64,000 bases of DNA from a virus, in IMG/VR virus record IMGVR_UViG_3300025013_000002, positions 1 to 64,000 of that record. One strand, written 5' to 3'. The notes beneath the pieces were generated by a model. The model saw nothing but the letters and a program-made list of their open reading frames with translations. It was not told the origin of the DNA and searched no databases. Each line of letters begins with the position of its first letter. The stretch's first letter is position 1. A program made the translations under genes and the position numbers. Positions 4,717 through 55,679 of this stretch are shown here, in pieces.

Positions 4717-5363
4717 CAGACTCCGATTTTTCCCGTATACCTCTCCATAGGCGAGATCTGCGTTACGTTATCCTTTTTACCATCCTTGTGCTCCTGCGCG
4801 TAATCCAGAAGGTACCGCTGTACCGACTGGTACCAGCCCTTTGCAGTCACTTGATTGAGGTTCATGTGGCCGTGCTTTCCATCTGGCGCAGAACTCCGCA
4901 TATATTCTTTCAGTTCACCAGATGCCCAAGCCCTTGGTAGGTACAACCACCAAGGCTCCAAGGCCACTGCCAACTTATCGGCCATACATAACCTGGAGGG
5001 CTCATCACCGTTTCTTTTAGCTAAGAACCGTGAATGGTTTAAGCAGAAGAAGTACCAACGAGCACCGTCGTAATTACCAGACAAATACCGCAAGAAACGT
5101 AGAGGATTCCAACTCCAGAGATCCTTATGGTGGTAATCAAACAACCAGTGCATAATCTTAGCCCCAGCATAGGGATGAAGTTCTCCTTTAGGACCATCCA
5201 TCTCAGGACAGCCCCAGTAGCCCCAATCATGTACCAGGAACGCCACCCACAGGCGCGGGTCCCACGGGAACCCATAGAGCTTCCACCACGCCAAGGCCAC
5301 AACAAAAGGATGCCACCACCAGAGATGCACTCCGAACAATAAAGATTTAGTTCCTACCTTCAA
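4716..5363 (-). CDS. HD-like metal-binding hypothetical protein
   Basis: H...HDWGY...H...H...ADKL spacing typical of the HD superfamily. Confidence 0.5.
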   Translation of the reverse strand: MKVGTKSLLFGVHLWWWHPFVVALAWWKLYGFPWDPRLWVAFLVHDWGYWGCPEMDGPKGELHPYAGAKIMHWLFDYHHKDLWSWNPLRFLRYLSGNYDGARWYFFCLNHSRFLAKRNGDEPSRLCMADKLAVALEPWWLYLPRAWASGELKEYMRSSAPDGKHGHMNLNQVTAKGWYQSVQRYLLDYAQEHKDGKKDNVTQISPMERYTGKIGV

Positions 5364-7861: not shown

Positions 7862-8871
7862 GCTGCCTCCTTCCAGACCGTCATCATCCGGTCGATTTTA
7901 TTTTCGTCGTACCCAAGCTCGCCAAGGTACAAAGCCAGTTCCTCGTCGAGCGACCGGTTGGCAATTTCTTCCTGCTCTCCATTTTCCTGAACCAGAACCT
8001 GCAAAGCTTCAGGAACCTTCACCAGCTTGACGTTGGCCTGAGGCGCTGAGATGGTCTTCAACTCAGGAACGGTGCCAGTGACCTCGATCCGGTAGAAGTC
8101 GGTGTCGTTCAGAGCGGGGAATTCTTCATCCGCTCGAATTCGGATCTGAATTAGTGAAGGCAAATTTGTGGCTAGACGCTCGTACTTCGCGGTGCCTTTG
8201 TCAATGGTCAGGAGGAGAACTCCGGTATCGACCGAGGATTGAAACTCCTTGTTGATCGGGTGGTTCGTGTAGACTAGCTTGCCTAGTTCGTACCTGCTGT
8301 GAATGTCCCCTACGACCGCAAGATCGAAAGGCTCCAGCAAATGATCGACATCAATTTCCTCCTTGACGAACTGATTGTAGTTGCAGCGGAAATGCGAGAT
8401 CAGGATGTTTGTGTGCCCTTCTTGAAACTCGAACTGGACTCCTGCGGGTGGAATTTCCTTTGGCAGGTTGCAGTGGTTCATGAAGTGGAGCGAGAAACGG
8501 TCGTCAGGAAAATGAGCACTCCAATCGGTGCTTCTGTAATTAACTTGGATCGTTTTGTCCTTGCCCATGTCTAGGTGCTTGAAGGTATCCTTGCCAGGCC
8601 CAATCGTACAATGATTCCCGGAGACTAAGTAAACTTCGACCCCCGCCTCACGACACATTCTGAAGAAAATTAATGCAAGCTCCTGCTCATCTAGGTCAGG
8701 CTCACATCTCTCAAAAACATCACCTGCGACAATAAGCTCTGCGTGATGGTGAAGGCAGGCTTCAATTAAATAGTCGAAGAGGCAAAAATAGCGTTCGATT
8801 TGCCAGGTTGTAGGAGCCTCTCGCCTGAGCCAGATGTGCCAATCTGCGGTACAGATAAATTTTTTAGGCAA
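7858..8871 (-). CDS. sbcD: SbcD/Mre11-like nuclease (T5 D12-like)
   Basis: ADWH, AGDVF, SGNH, SH, GDIH phosphoesterase motifs; upstream of the SbcC-like gene. Confidence 0.9.
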   Translation of the reverse strand: MPKKFICTADWHIWLRREAPTTWQIERYFCLFDYLIEACLHHHAELIVAGDVFERCEPDLDEQELALIFFRMCREAGVEVYLVSGNHCTIGPGKDTFKHLDMGKDKTIQVNYRSTDWSAHFPDDRFSLHFMNHCNLPKEIPPAGVQFEFQEGHTNILISHFRCNYNQFVKEEIDVDHLLEPFDLAVVGDIHSRYELGKLVYTNHPINKEFQSSVDTGVLLLTIDKGTAKYERLATNLPSLIQIRIRADEEFPALNDTDFYRIEVTGTVPELKTISAPQANVKLVKVPEALQVLVQENGEQEEIANRSLDEELALYLGELGYDENKIDRMMTVWKEAA

Positions 8872-9403
8872 CTAGCGCCTCCTCGCTAAAAGGTTGATGA
8901 ACACTTCTGGCTTTCTTGGCTACAACCTCTGCTTCCGCAATTGTGTCAAATCTTCCGAAGTACATATAAGGGCCTCCTCCTGGCTCCTTGACTCGGACCG
9001 TCCATTTGCCAGATCTAGCACATTGGGACACCCCACGCACCCCTGACTTACTTCTTTTAGTGGCACCTTTTCTGTTCTGTCCATTTTCAGATTTTGTTGC
9101 CAACCTCAAGTTGCTCTTCCTGTTGTCACACGGGTTGTGGTTAATGTGGTCTACGTCGAAGCCTTTTGGTGCGTCTAACAAAAATCTTGACATGACAACA
9201 CGACTACTGGTACCCGACACCTTGCCATACACGACTACATAGCCGCCGCGTACCGTTAAACACCAATGCAGCCCACACTCTTTTAGTCGAGCAACATCTT
9301 CCGTGTCTACCAGAACTACCGCTATATGATTTCGCCCTTTTATCGTTAGTTCCGTAGTTTTGTCATTAATTTCTTCATATTCGTTGGTTACCCTACGACG
9401 CAT
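8864..9403 (-). CDS. free-standing HNH homing endonuclease (HNH_3 + AP2-like domain)
   Basis: VDHINHNPCDNRKSNLRLAT..EN..N followed by SGVRGV...W...YFGRFDTIAEA. Confidence 0.9.
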   Translation of the reverse strand: MRRRVTNEYEEINDKTTELTIKGRNHIAVVLVDTEDVARLKECGLHWCLTVRGGYVVVYGKVSGTSSRVVMSRFLLDAPKGFDVDHINHNPCDNRKSNLRLATKSENGQNRKGATKRSKSGVRGVSQCARSGKWTVRVKEPGGGPYMYFGRFDTIAEAEVVAKKARSVHQPFSEEALVA

Positions 9404-10048: not shown

Positions 10049-10124
10049 TGGAGCCACTGACAGGAATCGAACCCGCAACATCTTGGTTACAAGCCAAGCG
10101 TTCTTCCATTTGAACTACAGCGGC
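10049..10124 (-). tRNA. tRNA-Thr(UGU) with encoded CCA
   Basis: Reverse complement folds as a cloverleaf: GCCGCTG acceptor, GTTC/GAAC D-arm, CTTGG-CT TGT AA-CCAAG anticodon arm, GCGGG-TTCGATT-CCTGT T-arm, 3' TCCA; 76 nt. Confidence 0.95.
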
Positions 10125-10129
10125 TTAAA

Positions 10130-10625
10130 TTAGTGTCCCGTATGAGGCCGGGACCACGCCTACTCCTGACTCACCCAGCACGTCTACCGGCCACCTCTGG
10201 AGTGTGGTGGTTGGCCTCGGACTTTCGCCTGCTAAGACGCTTAAGTTTCCGAGGCGCCATAAGTGTCCCTCACGGGACGTAGATTTCCGGTTCCCTCATT
10301 ACTACTCAACTGCACCGGAAGGTCGTTGAGCTATCCCCATAACCAGCAGGTCTCTGGAGCAGACTTCCACGCGGTCTGCCAGCGCTGCCTGAATAACTAC
10401 CGTAGAGTACAGGCTCCTCCCCTTTCACACGTTTCAGGTCGCTCATGTTAGGCTTGGGTACAACCACCGAGAACACAGGTTTGAGCTTCAAGCGCCTAGC
10501 AACTAGGCACCTCAGAGGCTTGCGCTCCAACTTCGCTGTACCAGCTACCAGCCTTAGCCAAATAAGGCCATGCCCTCAATGACGTGCTACTCGTCCGCGT
10601 CTACACCTCCTGTTCTGAGGGAGAA
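10130..10625 (-). ncRNA. candidate large structured non-coding RNA (about 490 nt) upstream of tRNA-Thr
   Basis: No credible ORF or RBS in an otherwise gap-free operon; more than 10 complementary segment pairs including long-range pairs, a GNRA tetraloop and an H-type pseudoknot (see findings). Boundaries approximate. Confidence 0.65.
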
Positions 10626-10644
10626 AAGTGAGCGGGGTTATTTC

Positions 10645-10854
10645 CTACAGAAACGCCTGCTTCATTTTCTCAGCGAGCCTGGTTGCTTCCAGACTTTCAC
10701 CAAGGTGCTTCTCGCGAGCATTCATCAGATCCGAAATCTTGGCTTCGATGCCTTCTGCGGCAGTGTCGTGCTTCGAGGAATGGGCCTCAAGTTCACGGAT
10801 GGCCTTCTGGAAGGTACCCATGATTTGGTCGATGGTTTTACATTTGAGGAACAA
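10645..10854 (-). CDS. small coiled-coil protein
   Basis: AAGGAG RBS, heptad pattern. Confidence 0.6.
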   Translation of the reverse strand: MFLKCKTIDQIMGTFQKAIRELEAHSSKHDTAAEGIEAKISDLMNAREKHLGESLEATRLAEKMKQAFL

Positions 10855-12187: not shown

Positions 12188-12577
12188 CTACAGCGCATCT
12201 ACCATCGCCCTAAGCTGCTCAAGGGATGCACCTAGGAGCTTCTCGTCTTCCTTCTGCGCGATGATCGACATGAGCTTCTGCTTCTTCTCCTTGGACTCCT
12301 TGACCTTCTCTGCAGCCTCGGCCTCGTTCAGTCTGACTTCTATCACGCGCTTGATGACCTCGAACTTGAGTTGGAGCACGGCGTCGAGGTTTTTGCTCTT
12401 GACGACGAAGCTCTCGGTGTCGCTGTCCTTCAGCTTGCGATGCAGGTCCTTGGCGATGTTGTCGAGGCAGGCGCCGTTGTTGACTGCGGTGAGCGGGAGG
12501 TCCCACAGGTCCTCGGTGCTGAGGTTGCCCTTGGGAGACTCGAAACGAATTTTCATCCTGCTGGCTTTTTCGAACAT
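12188..12577 (-). CDS. conserved phage hypothetical protein (coiled-coil C-terminus)
   Basis: MFEKASRMKIRFES.KG.LSTEDLWDLPL; AGGAGG RBS; co-transcribed with the 670-aa gene. Confidence 0.75.
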   Translation of the reverse strand: MFEKASRMKIRFESPKGNLSTEDLWDLPLTAVNNGACLDNIAKDLHRKLKDSDTESFVVKSKNLDAVLQLKFEVIKRVIEVRLNEAEAAEKVKESKEKKQKLMSIIAQKEDEKLLGASLEQLRAMVDAL

Positions 12578-12588
12578 TTTTCTTCCTC

Positions 12589-14601
12589 CTAGAAGTTGAT
12601 TTTGAGGGTGCGGGTGAAGCTACCCTTGACTCTGCAAAGTACGCTGCTGCGCTGCGTTGAGGAGAACCCGATTCCACTGAGTTGGTTCTCGGACTCCTCG
12701 ACCTTCATCTTGGAGCCTACGACCTCGAAGACCTTCCGGTGCGCGTTCAGTTCCTCGTTCAGGAACTCGTTGTAGAAGCCCCGCGCCTTGCCTTCGTTCA
12801 CGCACTTGTCGAGCATGAAGAAGAAGTGCTTGTTTCCTACGCCATGCCCGTCCCAGTGGTTCGGGGAGTGCATGAGGACGTTGACCTTGTGGAAGGTCTG
12901 CGTCGGGAGGCCCCATACGACCTTCGATGTCTGCGAAGAAGGCAGCGACTTGACGATCTCGAATCCGTCCTTGTGGCTGTACTTGATCTGGGCGACTTCG
13001 ACATAATCCCTGGGGTGCATCACCTTGGGGTACGCGAAGTTGTAGGTGGTCCCAGCGAACTCGATCTCGACTTCGAAACCGAAGTTGTCGCTGTTGCGCT
13101 GGGAGAACTGGTGGACCATCAGCGTATAAACGCCCTCGCGCATCTGGCGCTTGTCGGAGTAGTAAATATTCTCCGCAGGATCGGTCCTCATCCCGTCTGC
13201 GCCGTTTGCGTCCAGGTCGAGGCACCCACCATTCGGAGATAGCCTGCGGCGGTTCGAGTAGTAGATCTTGTGGCCGTTCGGCTCGATCATGTGGAAGTCG
13301 AGGTCGTCGGTATTGTTCCACGCCAGCCTGCAGCAGAGGTCGCCTTCGACCTTCCCACCAGCCTTCTTGACGCGCTCCTTGATCGAGTCCGTCATGTCGC
13401 CTGTGTACGACCACGAGAAGTTGTTCGGCCACTTGAACATGCCCTTGGCGTCAGAGTCGATGGGAGCGATCAGGCTGACCATGTTCCCGGCGTGCTTGTT
13501 CTCAAGCAGGATCTCCAACGACTCCACCTTCGGTAGAACATTGGAGATAAATTCTGCGATCCCGATTTCTTCAACTCGGTCGAAACTTTTCATGTTCTCG
13601 GGAACAGCCCCAGCCAACTCCTCGAACACATTAGTCATCCGCTGCTTGGATTCCCTGTTGGCGAACAGGATGTTGTTCACGGTGATGTCTTCCATGACCG
13701 CGTACCTGCGCTGGAGGGCAGAGGTTAACCCGAGTTCCTCGATTGTCCTCTGCGCCTTCTCGATCATGCCCTTGGTGATCAGAGCGCTGGGGCGCTTGTA
13801 GTTGCTAGGCGCCACCTTTGCCTCGAACGATCCTACAGACGGCTCCAGGTCCTTGCCTTCGGAGAGATCCACCAGCAAAGTCCCGATGACCGTGCCTCGA
13901 ATTTTGGAGACAGACTGGGGCACGCTCTTCACCCGCGACCAGCAGAAGATGTCGTGCTGCGAAGCCGGAAGCTTGGCGAATTCCTTCTTCAGCTTCAAGA
14001 AGCTCTCCACCGCGAACTTGTGTTCCTCGCCCCGGTACAGCGAATTCTGCGCGATCAGCTCCAGCACTGTGTCGATGGAATCCAGAGAGATTTCCTTGAG
14101 GCTCCTCAGGAAAACGTCCTTGGTGCTCCTGGACTCAGACAGTCTGGCGCCGATGTCGAGCCCTTTGACCACTCGGTCGGTCGGGATCTTGATGTAGAAG
14201 TGCTCCCAGGTAAGCATTTCTCCCGAATCCGTCTGCTGGAAGTTTTTGTCAACCCCGGCTACGGACTCAGGGTGGAGGAAGATGTTGCTGATTTCGCTGG
14301 ATTTAACCAGAGTGGAAAGCGCGTCCGAAACTACCTGATAGAAGCCGCCGGGCTGGGCGTCCCAGATACTGACCACTTTCCCGTCGATGATGGCAACTAC
14401 GTCGCCAACCGCTCTGATAAAGGATCGACAGCAGGTGCAATCGTGCTCCGTGCGTTCTTTGTAGATCGGATCGGTGCCTTCTGGGAAGCTGCTGAGGTAG
14501 GTCTCCCAGAGAAGATCCTTGGAAACCTCGGCGCGAAAAAGCTCGTGCTGCTTCATCACATCGAACTGCTTTTGAACCGCTACCTTGAAATCGTTGAACA
14601 T
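12589..14601 (-). CDS. large conserved phage protein with C-terminal YfaP/DUF2135-like motif
   Basis: ATG 14601 after AAGGAGG; HDCTCC motif near the N-terminus; LAWNNTDDLDFH..EP...LDLDAN...ENIYY. Confidence 0.7.
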   Translation of the reverse strand: MFNDFKVAVQKQFDVMKQHELFRAEVSKDLLWETYLSSFPEGTDPIYKERTEHDCTCCRSFIRAVGDVVAIIDGKVVSIWDAQPGGFYQVVSDALSTLVKSSEISNIFLHPESVAGVDKNFQQTDSGEMLTWEHFYIKIPTDRVVKGLDIGARLSESRSTKDVFLRSLKEISLDSIDTVLELIAQNSLYRGEEHKFAVESFLKLKKEFAKLPASQHDIFCWSRVKSVPQSVSKIRGTVIGTLLVDLSEGKDLEPSVGSFEAKVAPSNYKRPSALITKGMIEKAQRTIEELGLTSALQRRYAVMEDITVNNILFANRESKQRMTNVFEELAGAVPENMKSFDRVEEIGIAEFISNVLPKVESLEILLENKHAGNMVSLIAPIDSDAKGMFKWPNNFSWSYTGDMTDSIKERVKKAGGKVEGDLCCRLAWNNTDDLDFHMIEPNGHKIYYSNRRRLSPNGGCLDLDANGADGMRTDPAENIYYSDKRQMREGVYTLMVHQFSQRNSDNFGFEVEIEFAGTTYNFAYPKVMHPRDYVEVAQIKYSHKDGFEIVKSLPSSQTSKVVWGLPTQTFHKVNVLMHSPNHWDGHGVGNKHFFFMLDKCVNEGKARGFYNEFLNEELNAHRKVFEVVGSKMKVEESENQLSGIGFSSTQRSSVLCRVKGSFTRTLKINF

Positions 14602-14635
14602 CTGATCCTCCTTTTGTTTTGTCTTCAATCCATAT

Positions 14636-14690
14636 TTGAATCCTAATTCATTTCTGAATTATTGTCAAGCTAAAAATTCACTTCTGAATA
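14636..14690 (-). promoter_or_regulatory. sigma70-type promoter with two motif-A operators
   Basis: TTGACA (14668-14663); motif A 6 nt upstream (14675-14689) and again in the spacer (14645-14660). Confidence 0.7.
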
Positions 14691-14699
14691 CTTTCTGGT

Positions 14700-14736
14700 G
14701 AAAAAGAGGAGCCCCCTCCTAGCCGAGGGGCTCCTC
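14700..14736 (-). terminator. intrinsic terminator ending a short non-coding transcript
   Basis: GAGGAGCCCCTC...GGGGGCTCCTC-TTTTT. Confidence 0.8.
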
Positions 14737-14807
14737 ACAACTTCTGCACCTAGTTTGCGGCTATGCACAGCACTACTGTGTAACCGGGGACCACATGGAC
14801 TTGAAAT

Positions 14808-14860
14808 TCACAATAATCTACTTCGGCCTAAATGTCAAGCAAAAAATTCACATCTGAATA
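14808..14860 (-). promoter_or_regulatory. sigma70-type promoter with upstream motif-A operator
   Basis: TTGACA (14838-14833), 6 nt downstream of motif A at 14845-14859. Confidence 0.6.
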
Positions 14861-14861
14861 T

Positions 14862-55006: not shown

Positions 55007-55679
55007 CTCAAGGTCGAGCTACGATCCGCGCCCTGGACCTGCAGGGCACCTCTTTTGCTCCATCTAAAGACTGCGAACATCCGTTTGCAGAGTTTAGAAA
55101 ATGTGAAATATCACTTTTATTTGTTCCATTATGTAACACATCCTGGATGAAATGTGAATTTTCATATTTTCTAAATAGAGCGGGACCGGCTCGATGCTTT
55201 GGGCCGGTCCCGCTTTGTTGCCTCAAAAATGTGAACTTCACATTTTTAATGAGCTTTTCTTTAACCAGTGAACCGATTGCCTCATGCCTCGCCTTTCTTA
55301 TCAGCGACACAACTATTAGCAGGACGGTCAGTATCTGGCGTTTAAACGGCCCTTCTGTTTAGATGTATGGTAGCACCTCCCCCGCTTCTTATCTCTCGAC
55401 TATAAGGGGATATTCCGCCTTTCCAATCTGTTACCTTGTACCGTCAGGCAGACTCCCATAGTTGGGGCCTCTGTCTGCAGTCATTTGGATTGATACAAGT
55501 CAAGGATCGAACGCGCTAAATCTTGTGCTGATCCTGTCGGCAATAGGTGACAGGTTCTAAGGTTTCGTGCCCTATAGCGGGACACTACTTTCTCCGTTTG
55601 GCATTTTGCTAGAATGCCTGTACAGGTGTCAAGCTGTACACGTCATGCCTCAATAGTCTCAATGAGCGGGGAAATGATA

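Follow-up and report, generated by a model that had tools for sequence, protein, structure and literature searches.

A conserved, probably structured non-coding element in the largest gap of a phage gene chain, with tRNA genes beside it in some variants

What occupies a gap of 520 bases in an otherwise tightly packed phage gene chain is the question raised by the locus described here. The stretch of DNA that was analysed, called the window throughout, consists of positions 1 to 64,000 of the IMG/VR virus record IMGVR_UViG_3300025013_000002, a linear record of 82.5 kilobases (kb) with an estimated completeness of 73%. All coordinates are window positions, and the RNA sense is the minus strand of the window. 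The gap, free of open reading frames (ORFs), lies at 10125-10644 between the transfer RNA (tRNA) gene tRNA-Thr(tgt) and a gene of 69 amino acids (aa), whose stop codon bounds it; no possible frame inside it has a family match, and around it all genes and the tRNA share the minus strand. A sequence-only reading of this DNA had drawn attention to a large, GC-rich gap in a tightly packed operon and proposed a single ornate non-coding RNA of about 490 nucleotides (nt) at this place. Such a gap exists. The minus-strand gene chain from 1.6 to 30 kb is tightly packed, the gap is by far the largest in it, and its GC content is 55.4% compared to 51.4% for the window. The RNA found there is smaller than the one proposed: a conserved non-coding element of 280 nt at 10359-10638 on the minus strand, which is probably a structured RNA. 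We assign a probability of roughly 55% to the reading that this element is a structured, autonomous non-coding phage RNA with no function assigned as yet.

The comparison is based on 7 distinct variants, the window and 6 others from IMG/VR and Joint Genome Institute (JGI) metagenomes. Two IMG/VR contigs are about 87% identical to the gap over its 5' ~290 nt; the neighbouring proteins are 65-98% identical, and the 3' ~222 nt and the tRNA are missing from both contigs. A 21-letter word from the most conserved stretch retrieved six more JGI metagenome contigs, one of which equals the IMG/VR relatives in this region. Only 10359-10638 is common to all 7 variants, with a length of 190-283 nt in the relatives. 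Additionally, among Logan contigs from the same habitats, 10444-10572 is swapped for 63 letters in one and 10158-10285 for 32 letters in another, and these joints independently match two replacement joints of the variant set.

According to the alignment of these variants, the core can be divided into four parts, all on the minus strand. The first, 10595-10638, was read from the variant sequences and contains an invariant 5' end, ACCCCG, placed a few bases after the upstream stop codon, and a 5' hairpin domain, P1. The interior of P1 exists in two unrelated versions, the window having type A, and the helix that closes the domain reads CCGC/GCGG in type A but CCGA/UCGG in type B; three of its pairs are invariant and were counted, and the fourth, which covaries, was read by eye, as MAFFT misaligns it. 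The second part, at 10573-10594, is a near-invariant 5' junction strand composed of ACGAGUA, the 5' strand of helix P2 (GCACGU, which pairs with ACGUGU) and then CAUUGAGGG. The third is a hypervariable arm, P3, at 10443-10572. It is 130 nt long here and 44-132 nt in the relatives, and the lengths across the variants (44, 61, 64, 79, 79, 130 and 132 nt) reflect wholesale replacement. The fourth is a near-invariant 3' block of 84 nt at 10359-10442, which contains the 3' strand of P2, a purine tract with GGAGG (10416-10420), hairpin P4 (10414-10410 with 10391-10387), the 8-nt palindrome CAGCGCUG (10387-10380) and hairpin P5 (10379-10374 with 10364-10359). In 3 of the 7 variants the prediction includes a possible additional helix, ACCC/GGG, which is invariant and so carries no covariation information. 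As a separate observation on the third part, the P3 arm of the type found in the window and in variant L002 holds a 19-nt near-copy of the P4 hairpin region (10387-10414), 94.7% identical in L002 (3383-3401) and further diverged in the window; this type of arm may have originated by internal duplication.

When all 21 pairs of variants are taken together, 36 of the 1779 positions compared in the 3' block differ (2.0%), as do 22 of 525 in the 5' junction strand (4.2%). At four-fold degenerate sites of three flanking genes, the differences amount to 163/532 (31%), 370/895 (41%) and 442/1981 (22%). These figures bear on one explanation of the gap, that it is a decaying tRNA array or a plain spacer without function of its own. 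The company of the element is indeed rich in tRNA genes, which lie directly 3' of it in 4 of the 7 variants (Thr in the window, Thr and Ser in L052, Gln in L047 and Gln in L051); none are present in the other 3, and tRNAs are lacking altogether from the two related IMG/VR records, of which one is 91% complete. An identical short linker is found 3' of tRNA-Gln in L047 and L051 and of tRNA-Ser in L052, which suggests one older, larger tRNA array with differential loss. Moreover, the P3 arm of L050 and L052 weakly resembles a tRNA, D and T arms included, at 14.1 bits and an expectation value (E) of 5.1; this is below the Rfam gathering threshold of 29 bits, and ARAGORN does not call the arm. The window's own P3 arm has no tRNA likeness. 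A decayed array could leave such an arm, such a common linker and such tRNA-free variants, but its decay predicts divergence at or above that of the four-fold sites, 22-41%, where 2-4% is observed, and the invariant blocks have no tRNA match. This explanation is considered very improbable.

Support for helices comes from the comparison of the variants. In a core model of 27 pairs, 99.5% of the 188 cells pair. Four pairs of the model have changed on both sides, a number reached by 1 of 500 shuffles, and the covariation score of 0.131 compares with 0.066 for the shuffles, of which 0/500 reach it. All 4 double-changed pairs form the closing helix of P3 (4/4 pairs), whose foot reads CAUG/CAUG, CAUU/AGUG, CAC/GUG or GCCU/AGGC depending on the variant. 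P2 is 100% paired, with 2 pairs altered on one side, in three sequences in all, to G-U or U-G. Within the arm, the window and L002 differ by 3 double changes in the P3 inner hairpin that leave it paired, and 0 of 81 predicted pairs are broken between these two variants. In a contig from wastewater, three letter changes at 10560-10564 all fall in a predicted hairpin loop, and a change at 10536 converts a G-U pair to A-U. All 14 pairs of P4, the inner 3-bp (base-pair) stem of P4 and P5 are invariant. Of the 188 cells, 12 are G-U or U-G, one of them an invariant G-U in P2; on the other strand these cells would be A-C mismatches, which points to the strand of the genes as that of the RNA.

The variants also show that the locus is a mosaic, and an element acting as DNA has to be weighed here: a protein-binding or recombination site, such as a boundary for module or tRNA exchange, in which the inverted repeats at the arm ends would be inserted DNA modules and not RNA helices. 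The edges of the blocks are the exact points at which arms, add-ons, tRNAs and neighbouring ORFs are exchanged. A different upstream gene is present in 2 of the 7 variants, and an extra downstream ORF of ~85 aa is inserted between the RNA and the p77 homologue in 2 of the 7, L050 and L047 (in the latter after tRNA-Gln), which is another sign of a swap point. Identical blocks could be kept by homologous recombination and promote it, the invariant block contains a perfect 8-bp palindrome, and genes for HNH endonucleases are nearby in 4 variants. However, the G-U and U-G cells, the invariant one in P2 among them, and the wobble replacements at three positions fit an RNA of the gene strand, whereas DNA hairpins formed by the opposite strand would contain them as mismatches, and the mutations of the arm preserve pairing through double changes. 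Unlike an operator or promoter family, no block has a second copy in the genome; one copy of the element and no repeated promoter-like piece were found genome-wide. A DNA-level role of the element is judged improbable, and a structured RNA is preferred.

One reading frame is open throughout the invariant 3' block, an ORF of 74 aa with a TTG start at 10306-10530 on the minus strand, and the gap could in principle hold a small protein gene. This ORF has no PHROG match or other family match, and no ribosome-binding site (RBS) or start is found at a conserved place. The length differences of P3 do not preserve a reading frame and disrupt this one, single-base indels occur inside the conserved parts, and the C-terminal continuation is different in each variant. 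The 5 substitutions in the open frame over the 3' block comprise 3 non-synonymous changes, 1 stop and 1 synonymous change. The sequence-only reading had named codon-type conservation without covariation as a finding that would speak against an RNA; what is seen are substitutions that are not codon-like and a P3 foot that covaries. A protein-coding explanation is thus extremely improbable.

The single sequence by itself is much less informative. The sequence-only reading listed 18 complementary words, of which 17 lie exactly where it placed them and 1 is shifted by one base. Its statement that the gap is packed with complementary pairs did not hold up when 10130-10625 was compared with 300 dinucleotide shuffles: the count was 40 for 6-mers (32.9 +/- 7.2 in shuffles, 52/300 at least as high), 11 for 7-mers (8.2 +/- 3.6, 75/300) and 3 for 8-mers (2.1 +/- 1.9, 103/300), none of them above chance. 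Local hairpins are mildly enriched, with 10 stems of 5 bp against 5.3 (26/300 shuffles) and 4 stems of 6 bp against 1.2 (21/300 shuffles). The minimum free energy of the whole gap has a z-score of -0.59 on the minus strand, where 24 of 100 shuffles are at least as stable, and of -0.96 on the plus strand (14 of 100); that of the 3' extension alone is marginally better than shuffles (z -1.86, 9/200). A folding energy no better than that of shuffled controls had been named beforehand as a result that would count against the proposal, and this is what was found; the argument for an RNA therefore depends on conservation and covariation, neither of which could be seen by a reader of one sequence.

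The proposed architecture also changes once the relatives are considered. Three long-range helices had been suggested, one of them spanning 400 nt and closing a single RNA of ~490 nt, and none of the three is possible throughout the 7 variants. For two of them, one strand lies inside 10158-10285, a segment specific to this window. The third, 10614-20 with 10510-16, requires the 5' domain and the middle arm of the window/L002 type; it is paired in L002 by way of a G-U, and the arm is replaced in the other five variants. The large ornate RNA is consequently not supported, and the conserved unit is the 5' ~280 nt. The remaining 234 nt, 10125-10358, are read as lineage-specific hairpin add-ons outside the conserved RNA.

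Three add-ons can be distinguished, all on the minus strand. E1 (10286-10358), a small hairpin with a pseudoknot-capable helix pair, is shared with L050 only, and its boundary at 10358 is crossed by a Logan contig. The pseudoknot words reported at 10330-10285 are present in the sequence and compatible with L050, while the module is missing from 5 of the 7 variants, so that the pseudoknot is no part of the conserved RNA. Between the window and L050, E1 shows 1 compensatory pair, 1 wobble-compatible change and 1 terminal pair lost; in L050 the wobble change lies in the pseudoknot and the compensatory change in the adjoining small hairpin. With 2 sequences the pairing count of the pseudoknot has no statistical power, and 246 of 500 shuffles do as well. 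E2 (10158-10285) consists of hairpins, one with a GUGA loop, and belongs to this window's type only; in L050, as in a Logan contig, 32 other letters stand in its place. E3 (10125-10157) is a hairpin, GUCCCG/CGGGAC, with a 10-nt linker to the tRNA; it also exists in L050 and L052, and 6/6 of its pairs are invariant in the 3 sequences. As had been noted from the sequence, the structured region ends about 10 nt before the tRNA, the last hairpin stopping 10 nt short of it. The idea of a non-coding RNA beside a tRNA is borne out in one respect, a conserved element with comparative helix support on the gene strand, and not in the other, as the tRNA is missing in 3 of the 7 variants.

The free gain and loss of hairpin modules on the 3' side leads to the main alternative, a cis-acting intercistronic element. 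In this explanation, the gap is a structured spacer that directs processing of the polycistronic transcript by RNase E, RNase III or RNase P and gives no free RNA; a 5' structure and a ribosome-binding GGAGG could further stabilise the downstream tRNA or mRNA part. The position of the element is in keeping with such a role. It is always found between ORFs of one transcription direction, no promoter-like or terminator-like site was called in the gap, the last hairpin adjoins the RBS region of the next gene in 2 of the 7 variants (L002 and L048), the last add-on hairpin does so in L050, and the invariant GGAGG has no start codon at the proper spacing. The size of the conserved unit is harder to reconcile with it: ~106 nearly invariant nt are far above the usual need of processing sites or protective hairpins, and the predicted stability of the core is not high, which is odd for a protective structure. 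Moreover, the cargo downstream varies among tRNA, extra ORF and p77, and therefore no single downstream target is served. A cis-acting element is possible, though clearly less probable than an autonomous RNA.

Several observations weigh against the autonomous RNA that we prefer. The covariation of the core is confined to one 4-bp helix at the foot of the swapped arm. The 17 pairs of P1, P4, the inner stem and P5 neither support nor oppose the fold, because they never vary. With the partners slid, the covariation score is 0.040 or less, a contrast inflated by the fact that the structure was derived from the same sequences on which it was tested. The sample is 7 variants of one narrow clade, and the near-identity of the blocks could partly reflect recent recombination and not purifying selection. 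The core alone folds no better than its shuffles (z +0.84, with 167 of 200 at least as good). The thermodynamic partner predicted for the G-rich tract is inconsistent among the variants, so that an exposed GGAGG is not established. The exchange of hairpin modules would fit simple processing or stability hairpins equally well as an intricate tertiary fold. In database searches, three words of the core gave in IMG/VR the two known relatives and two 18-mer matches only, 185,579 GTDB genomes gave 0 matches for one word and 1 (L056) for another, and none of the 8 public runs holding the DNA is on record as RNA.

The element is carried by uncultivated phages of groundwater, sediment and wastewater that form a small clade, and it is co-directional with the surrounding genes; on the preferred reading of a structured, autonomous RNA, it would be co-transcribed with its neighbours. 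The predicted fold is a junction of two near-invariant strands (~22 nt on the 5' side, 84 nt on the 3' side) clamped by P2; the P1 domain and the large P3 would extend from this junction as exchangeable arms, along with the two invariant hairpins P4 and P5. Invariant junction strands combined with freely exchangeable arms are the pattern of partner-binding or catalytic RNAs. The working surface would be formed by the invariant, largely unpaired junction nucleotides, including the start-less, Shine-Dalgarno-like GGAGG and CAGCGCUG. Where a tRNA follows, cleavage by RNase P at the tRNA 5' end would define the 3' end of the RNA, and such a release is plausible. Since the flanking genes vary while tRNA genes and a tRNA-like arm recur, a free-standing RNA may engage a partner from the translation or tRNA machinery; as both neighbours vary, a regulator dedicated to one gene is unlikely. 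The company of tRNAs, the weak D- and T-arm likeness of P3 in L050 and L052, and the start-less GGAGG point towards the tRNA or translation machinery, any particular partner being much less probable than the RNA itself. A bolder proposal, tentative and rather unlikely in our estimation, is that the element represents the first of a new class of compact RNAs associated with the tRNA islands of phages, with an invariant catalytic or partner-binding junction, a plug-in arm able to host a mimic of the tRNA elbow, and a free-standing mode of action directed at the translation or tRNA machinery of the host, such as capture of the 30S subunit through the start-less GGAGG; self-association through the invariant 8-nt palindrome might also occur.

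A comparison with known RNAs places the element outside existing families. A scan of the window gap with the 4227 covariance models (CMs) of Rfam 15 (cmscan) gave no match, either with the gathering threshold or with lax filters and E values of up to 10; the element of L050, searched with lax filters up to the same E value, gave no GOLLD or ROOL match and only the weak, below-threshold tRNA likeness of its P3 arm. In L047, L048 and L050-L052 only tRNAs were found, with no other family match at E up to 1. Transfer-messenger RNA, RNase P RNA, group I and group II introns and self-cleaving ribozymes gave no family-model match. In riboswitch aptamers and small ribozymes, invariant junction nucleotides are surrounded by helices that vary in sequence and length. 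The present element has invariant junction nucleotides flanked by helices that are free in both respects; unlike riboswitches and ribozymes, it has no constant downstream gene or expression platform, and no Rfam match. The tRNA gene cluster of phage T4 encodes small stable non-tRNA RNAs of unknown function, which are co-transcribed with the tRNAs and released by tRNA-processing enzymes. The resemblance to these RNAs is mentioned as a lead only.

The closest analogues are the large phage RNAs GOLLD and ROOL, which are abundant and of solved structure with no known function. Both have profiles in Rfam (bioRxiv 10.1101/2024.12.08.627333). ROOL is about 581 nt long, and many GOLLD RNAs exceed 800 nt (bioRxiv 10.1101/2024.12.08.627333; PMC5737381). 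ROOL is described as an RNA of phages and prophages located near tRNAs and possibly co-transcribed with them (bioRxiv 10.1101/2024.12.08.627333; PMC5737381), and GOLLD as having a conserved 3' part and a variable part, with tRNAs sometimes inside (bioRxiv 10.1101/2024.12.08.627333). The element resembles GOLLD in being phage-encoded and often near tRNA islands, here with tRNAs directly downstream in 4 of the 7 variants, and in its build, an invariant 3' block and a hypervariable arm that is twice weakly tRNA-like; with ROOL it shares the phage location, the tRNA neighbourhood and the lack of a known function. Such a context would suit a divergent member of either family. In contrast, its sequence and helices are unrelated to GOLLD, it matches no Rfam model of either family, and its core of 190-283 nt within a whole gap of 520 nt compares with the sizes given in those texts of about 581 nt for ROOL and more than 800 nt for GOLLD, that is, a third to half of their size. 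Furthermore, it is confined to one narrow clade, unlike GOLLD, and, unlike ROOL, it has one junction with about 5-6 helices (27 pairs) and a pseudoknot candidate only in a non-conserved add-on. Membership in GOLLD or ROOL is effectively refuted by the covariance-model searches. The sequence-only reading had considered both and could assign the region to neither. The element is unclassified, new to Rfam, and analogous to both.

A much smaller RNA that, like GOLLD and ROOL, occurs in phages near tRNAs and combines an invariant part with a variable one of occasional tRNA likeness could be a more tractable handle on phage RNAs beside tRNAs, and its natural arm-swap variants already indicate which parts are dispensable. 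If the proposal of a new class were true, it would be a small functional cousin of the two, simpler to dissect than either; the narrow clade is a serious practical limit. A catalogue of structured-RNA candidates from covariation in viral intergenic regions of IMG/VR, tRNA-like ones included, relies on the data source and the type of evidence used here; it gives candidate lengths of 29-151 nt and a requirement of at least 3 unique IMG/VR regions (PMC10690425). No paper describing this RNA was found in a literature search that did not extend to the motif tables of PMC10690425, which may list a fragment of it.

The distribution of the element is narrow, and only one small clade is known to carry it. 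CM R1, the covariance model built from the core copies, gave 191-261 bits on every copy used to build it and found nothing else, with no further copy over 45 sources (672,384 bases). Against 50,697 phage records, blastn of the gap matched in the tRNA part only and tblastn of the 69-aa neighbour gave no match; in Logan/ENA assemblies, that neighbour protein is seen on 33 + 8 contigs. Among 39 IMG/VR loci with relatives of a 679-aa protein of the neighbourhood, the synteny beyond the two close relatives ends after the next gene, and the RNA was not found there by blastn, nhmmer or CM R1; L010 has tRNAs in tight gaps without such an element. The two 18-mer matches in IMG/VR, L054 and L055, were rejected by the covariance model. 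The single GTDB match, a 19-letter junction-strand word at 4922-4996 (minus strand) of L056, lies antisense in an ORF for a 539-aa ATPase of a Gemmatimonadota metagenome-assembled genome and was judged to be due to chance; the 14.8 bits given by the covariance model are driven by that word. A 20-mer from E2 had 0 matches in IMG/VR. Another stretch of the window of about 500 nt, 55179-55671, has no similarity to the element by blastn or CM R1. The public runs holding the DNA are groundwater and sediment metagenomes, and a near-identical core is present in a wastewater run. That run, with a library labelled "RNA-Seq cDNA" and rated as probably DNA, has two 151-nt contigs of depth 2 which cover only 10358-10635 and may be one read pair, and nothing is drawn from them.

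The neighbourhood of the gap consists of the 69-aa gene (10645-10854, minus strand; PHROG of unknown function), the tRNA-Thr with anticodon tgt and an encoded CCA (10049-10124, minus strand; ARAGORN, and 65.7 bits with the Rfam tRNA model), which is the sole tRNA in a search of the whole 82.5-kb record, and genes for SbcC- and SbcD-like nuclease subunits, a free-standing HNH endonuclease and small ORFs. Searches of the neighbouring genes against Pfam and PHROGs gave no functional clue, and the small ORFs have no Pfam match. The HNH endonuclease gene (8864-9403, minus strand) is located between a 135-aa gene and the SbcD-like gene; it is missing at the same spot in the L002/L008 type, and L050-L052 carry versions of it at 30-45% identity. 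The nearest cultured relatives of the 679-aa protein are found in Caulobacter phiCbK-like phages and the Ralstonia phage phiRSL1, at only ~54% identity. Its gene and a 129-aa gene form a pair (12188-14628, minus strand) that has no Pfam match and is the sole part of the neighbourhood kept in distant relatives, phiCbK-like and Vi1-like phages among them; both genes are present in 37 of the 39 IMG/VR loci, and the larger one alone in 1 more. Just upstream of the 679-aa gene, a second, smaller gap of 233 nt without a long minus-strand ORF exists at 14629-14861.

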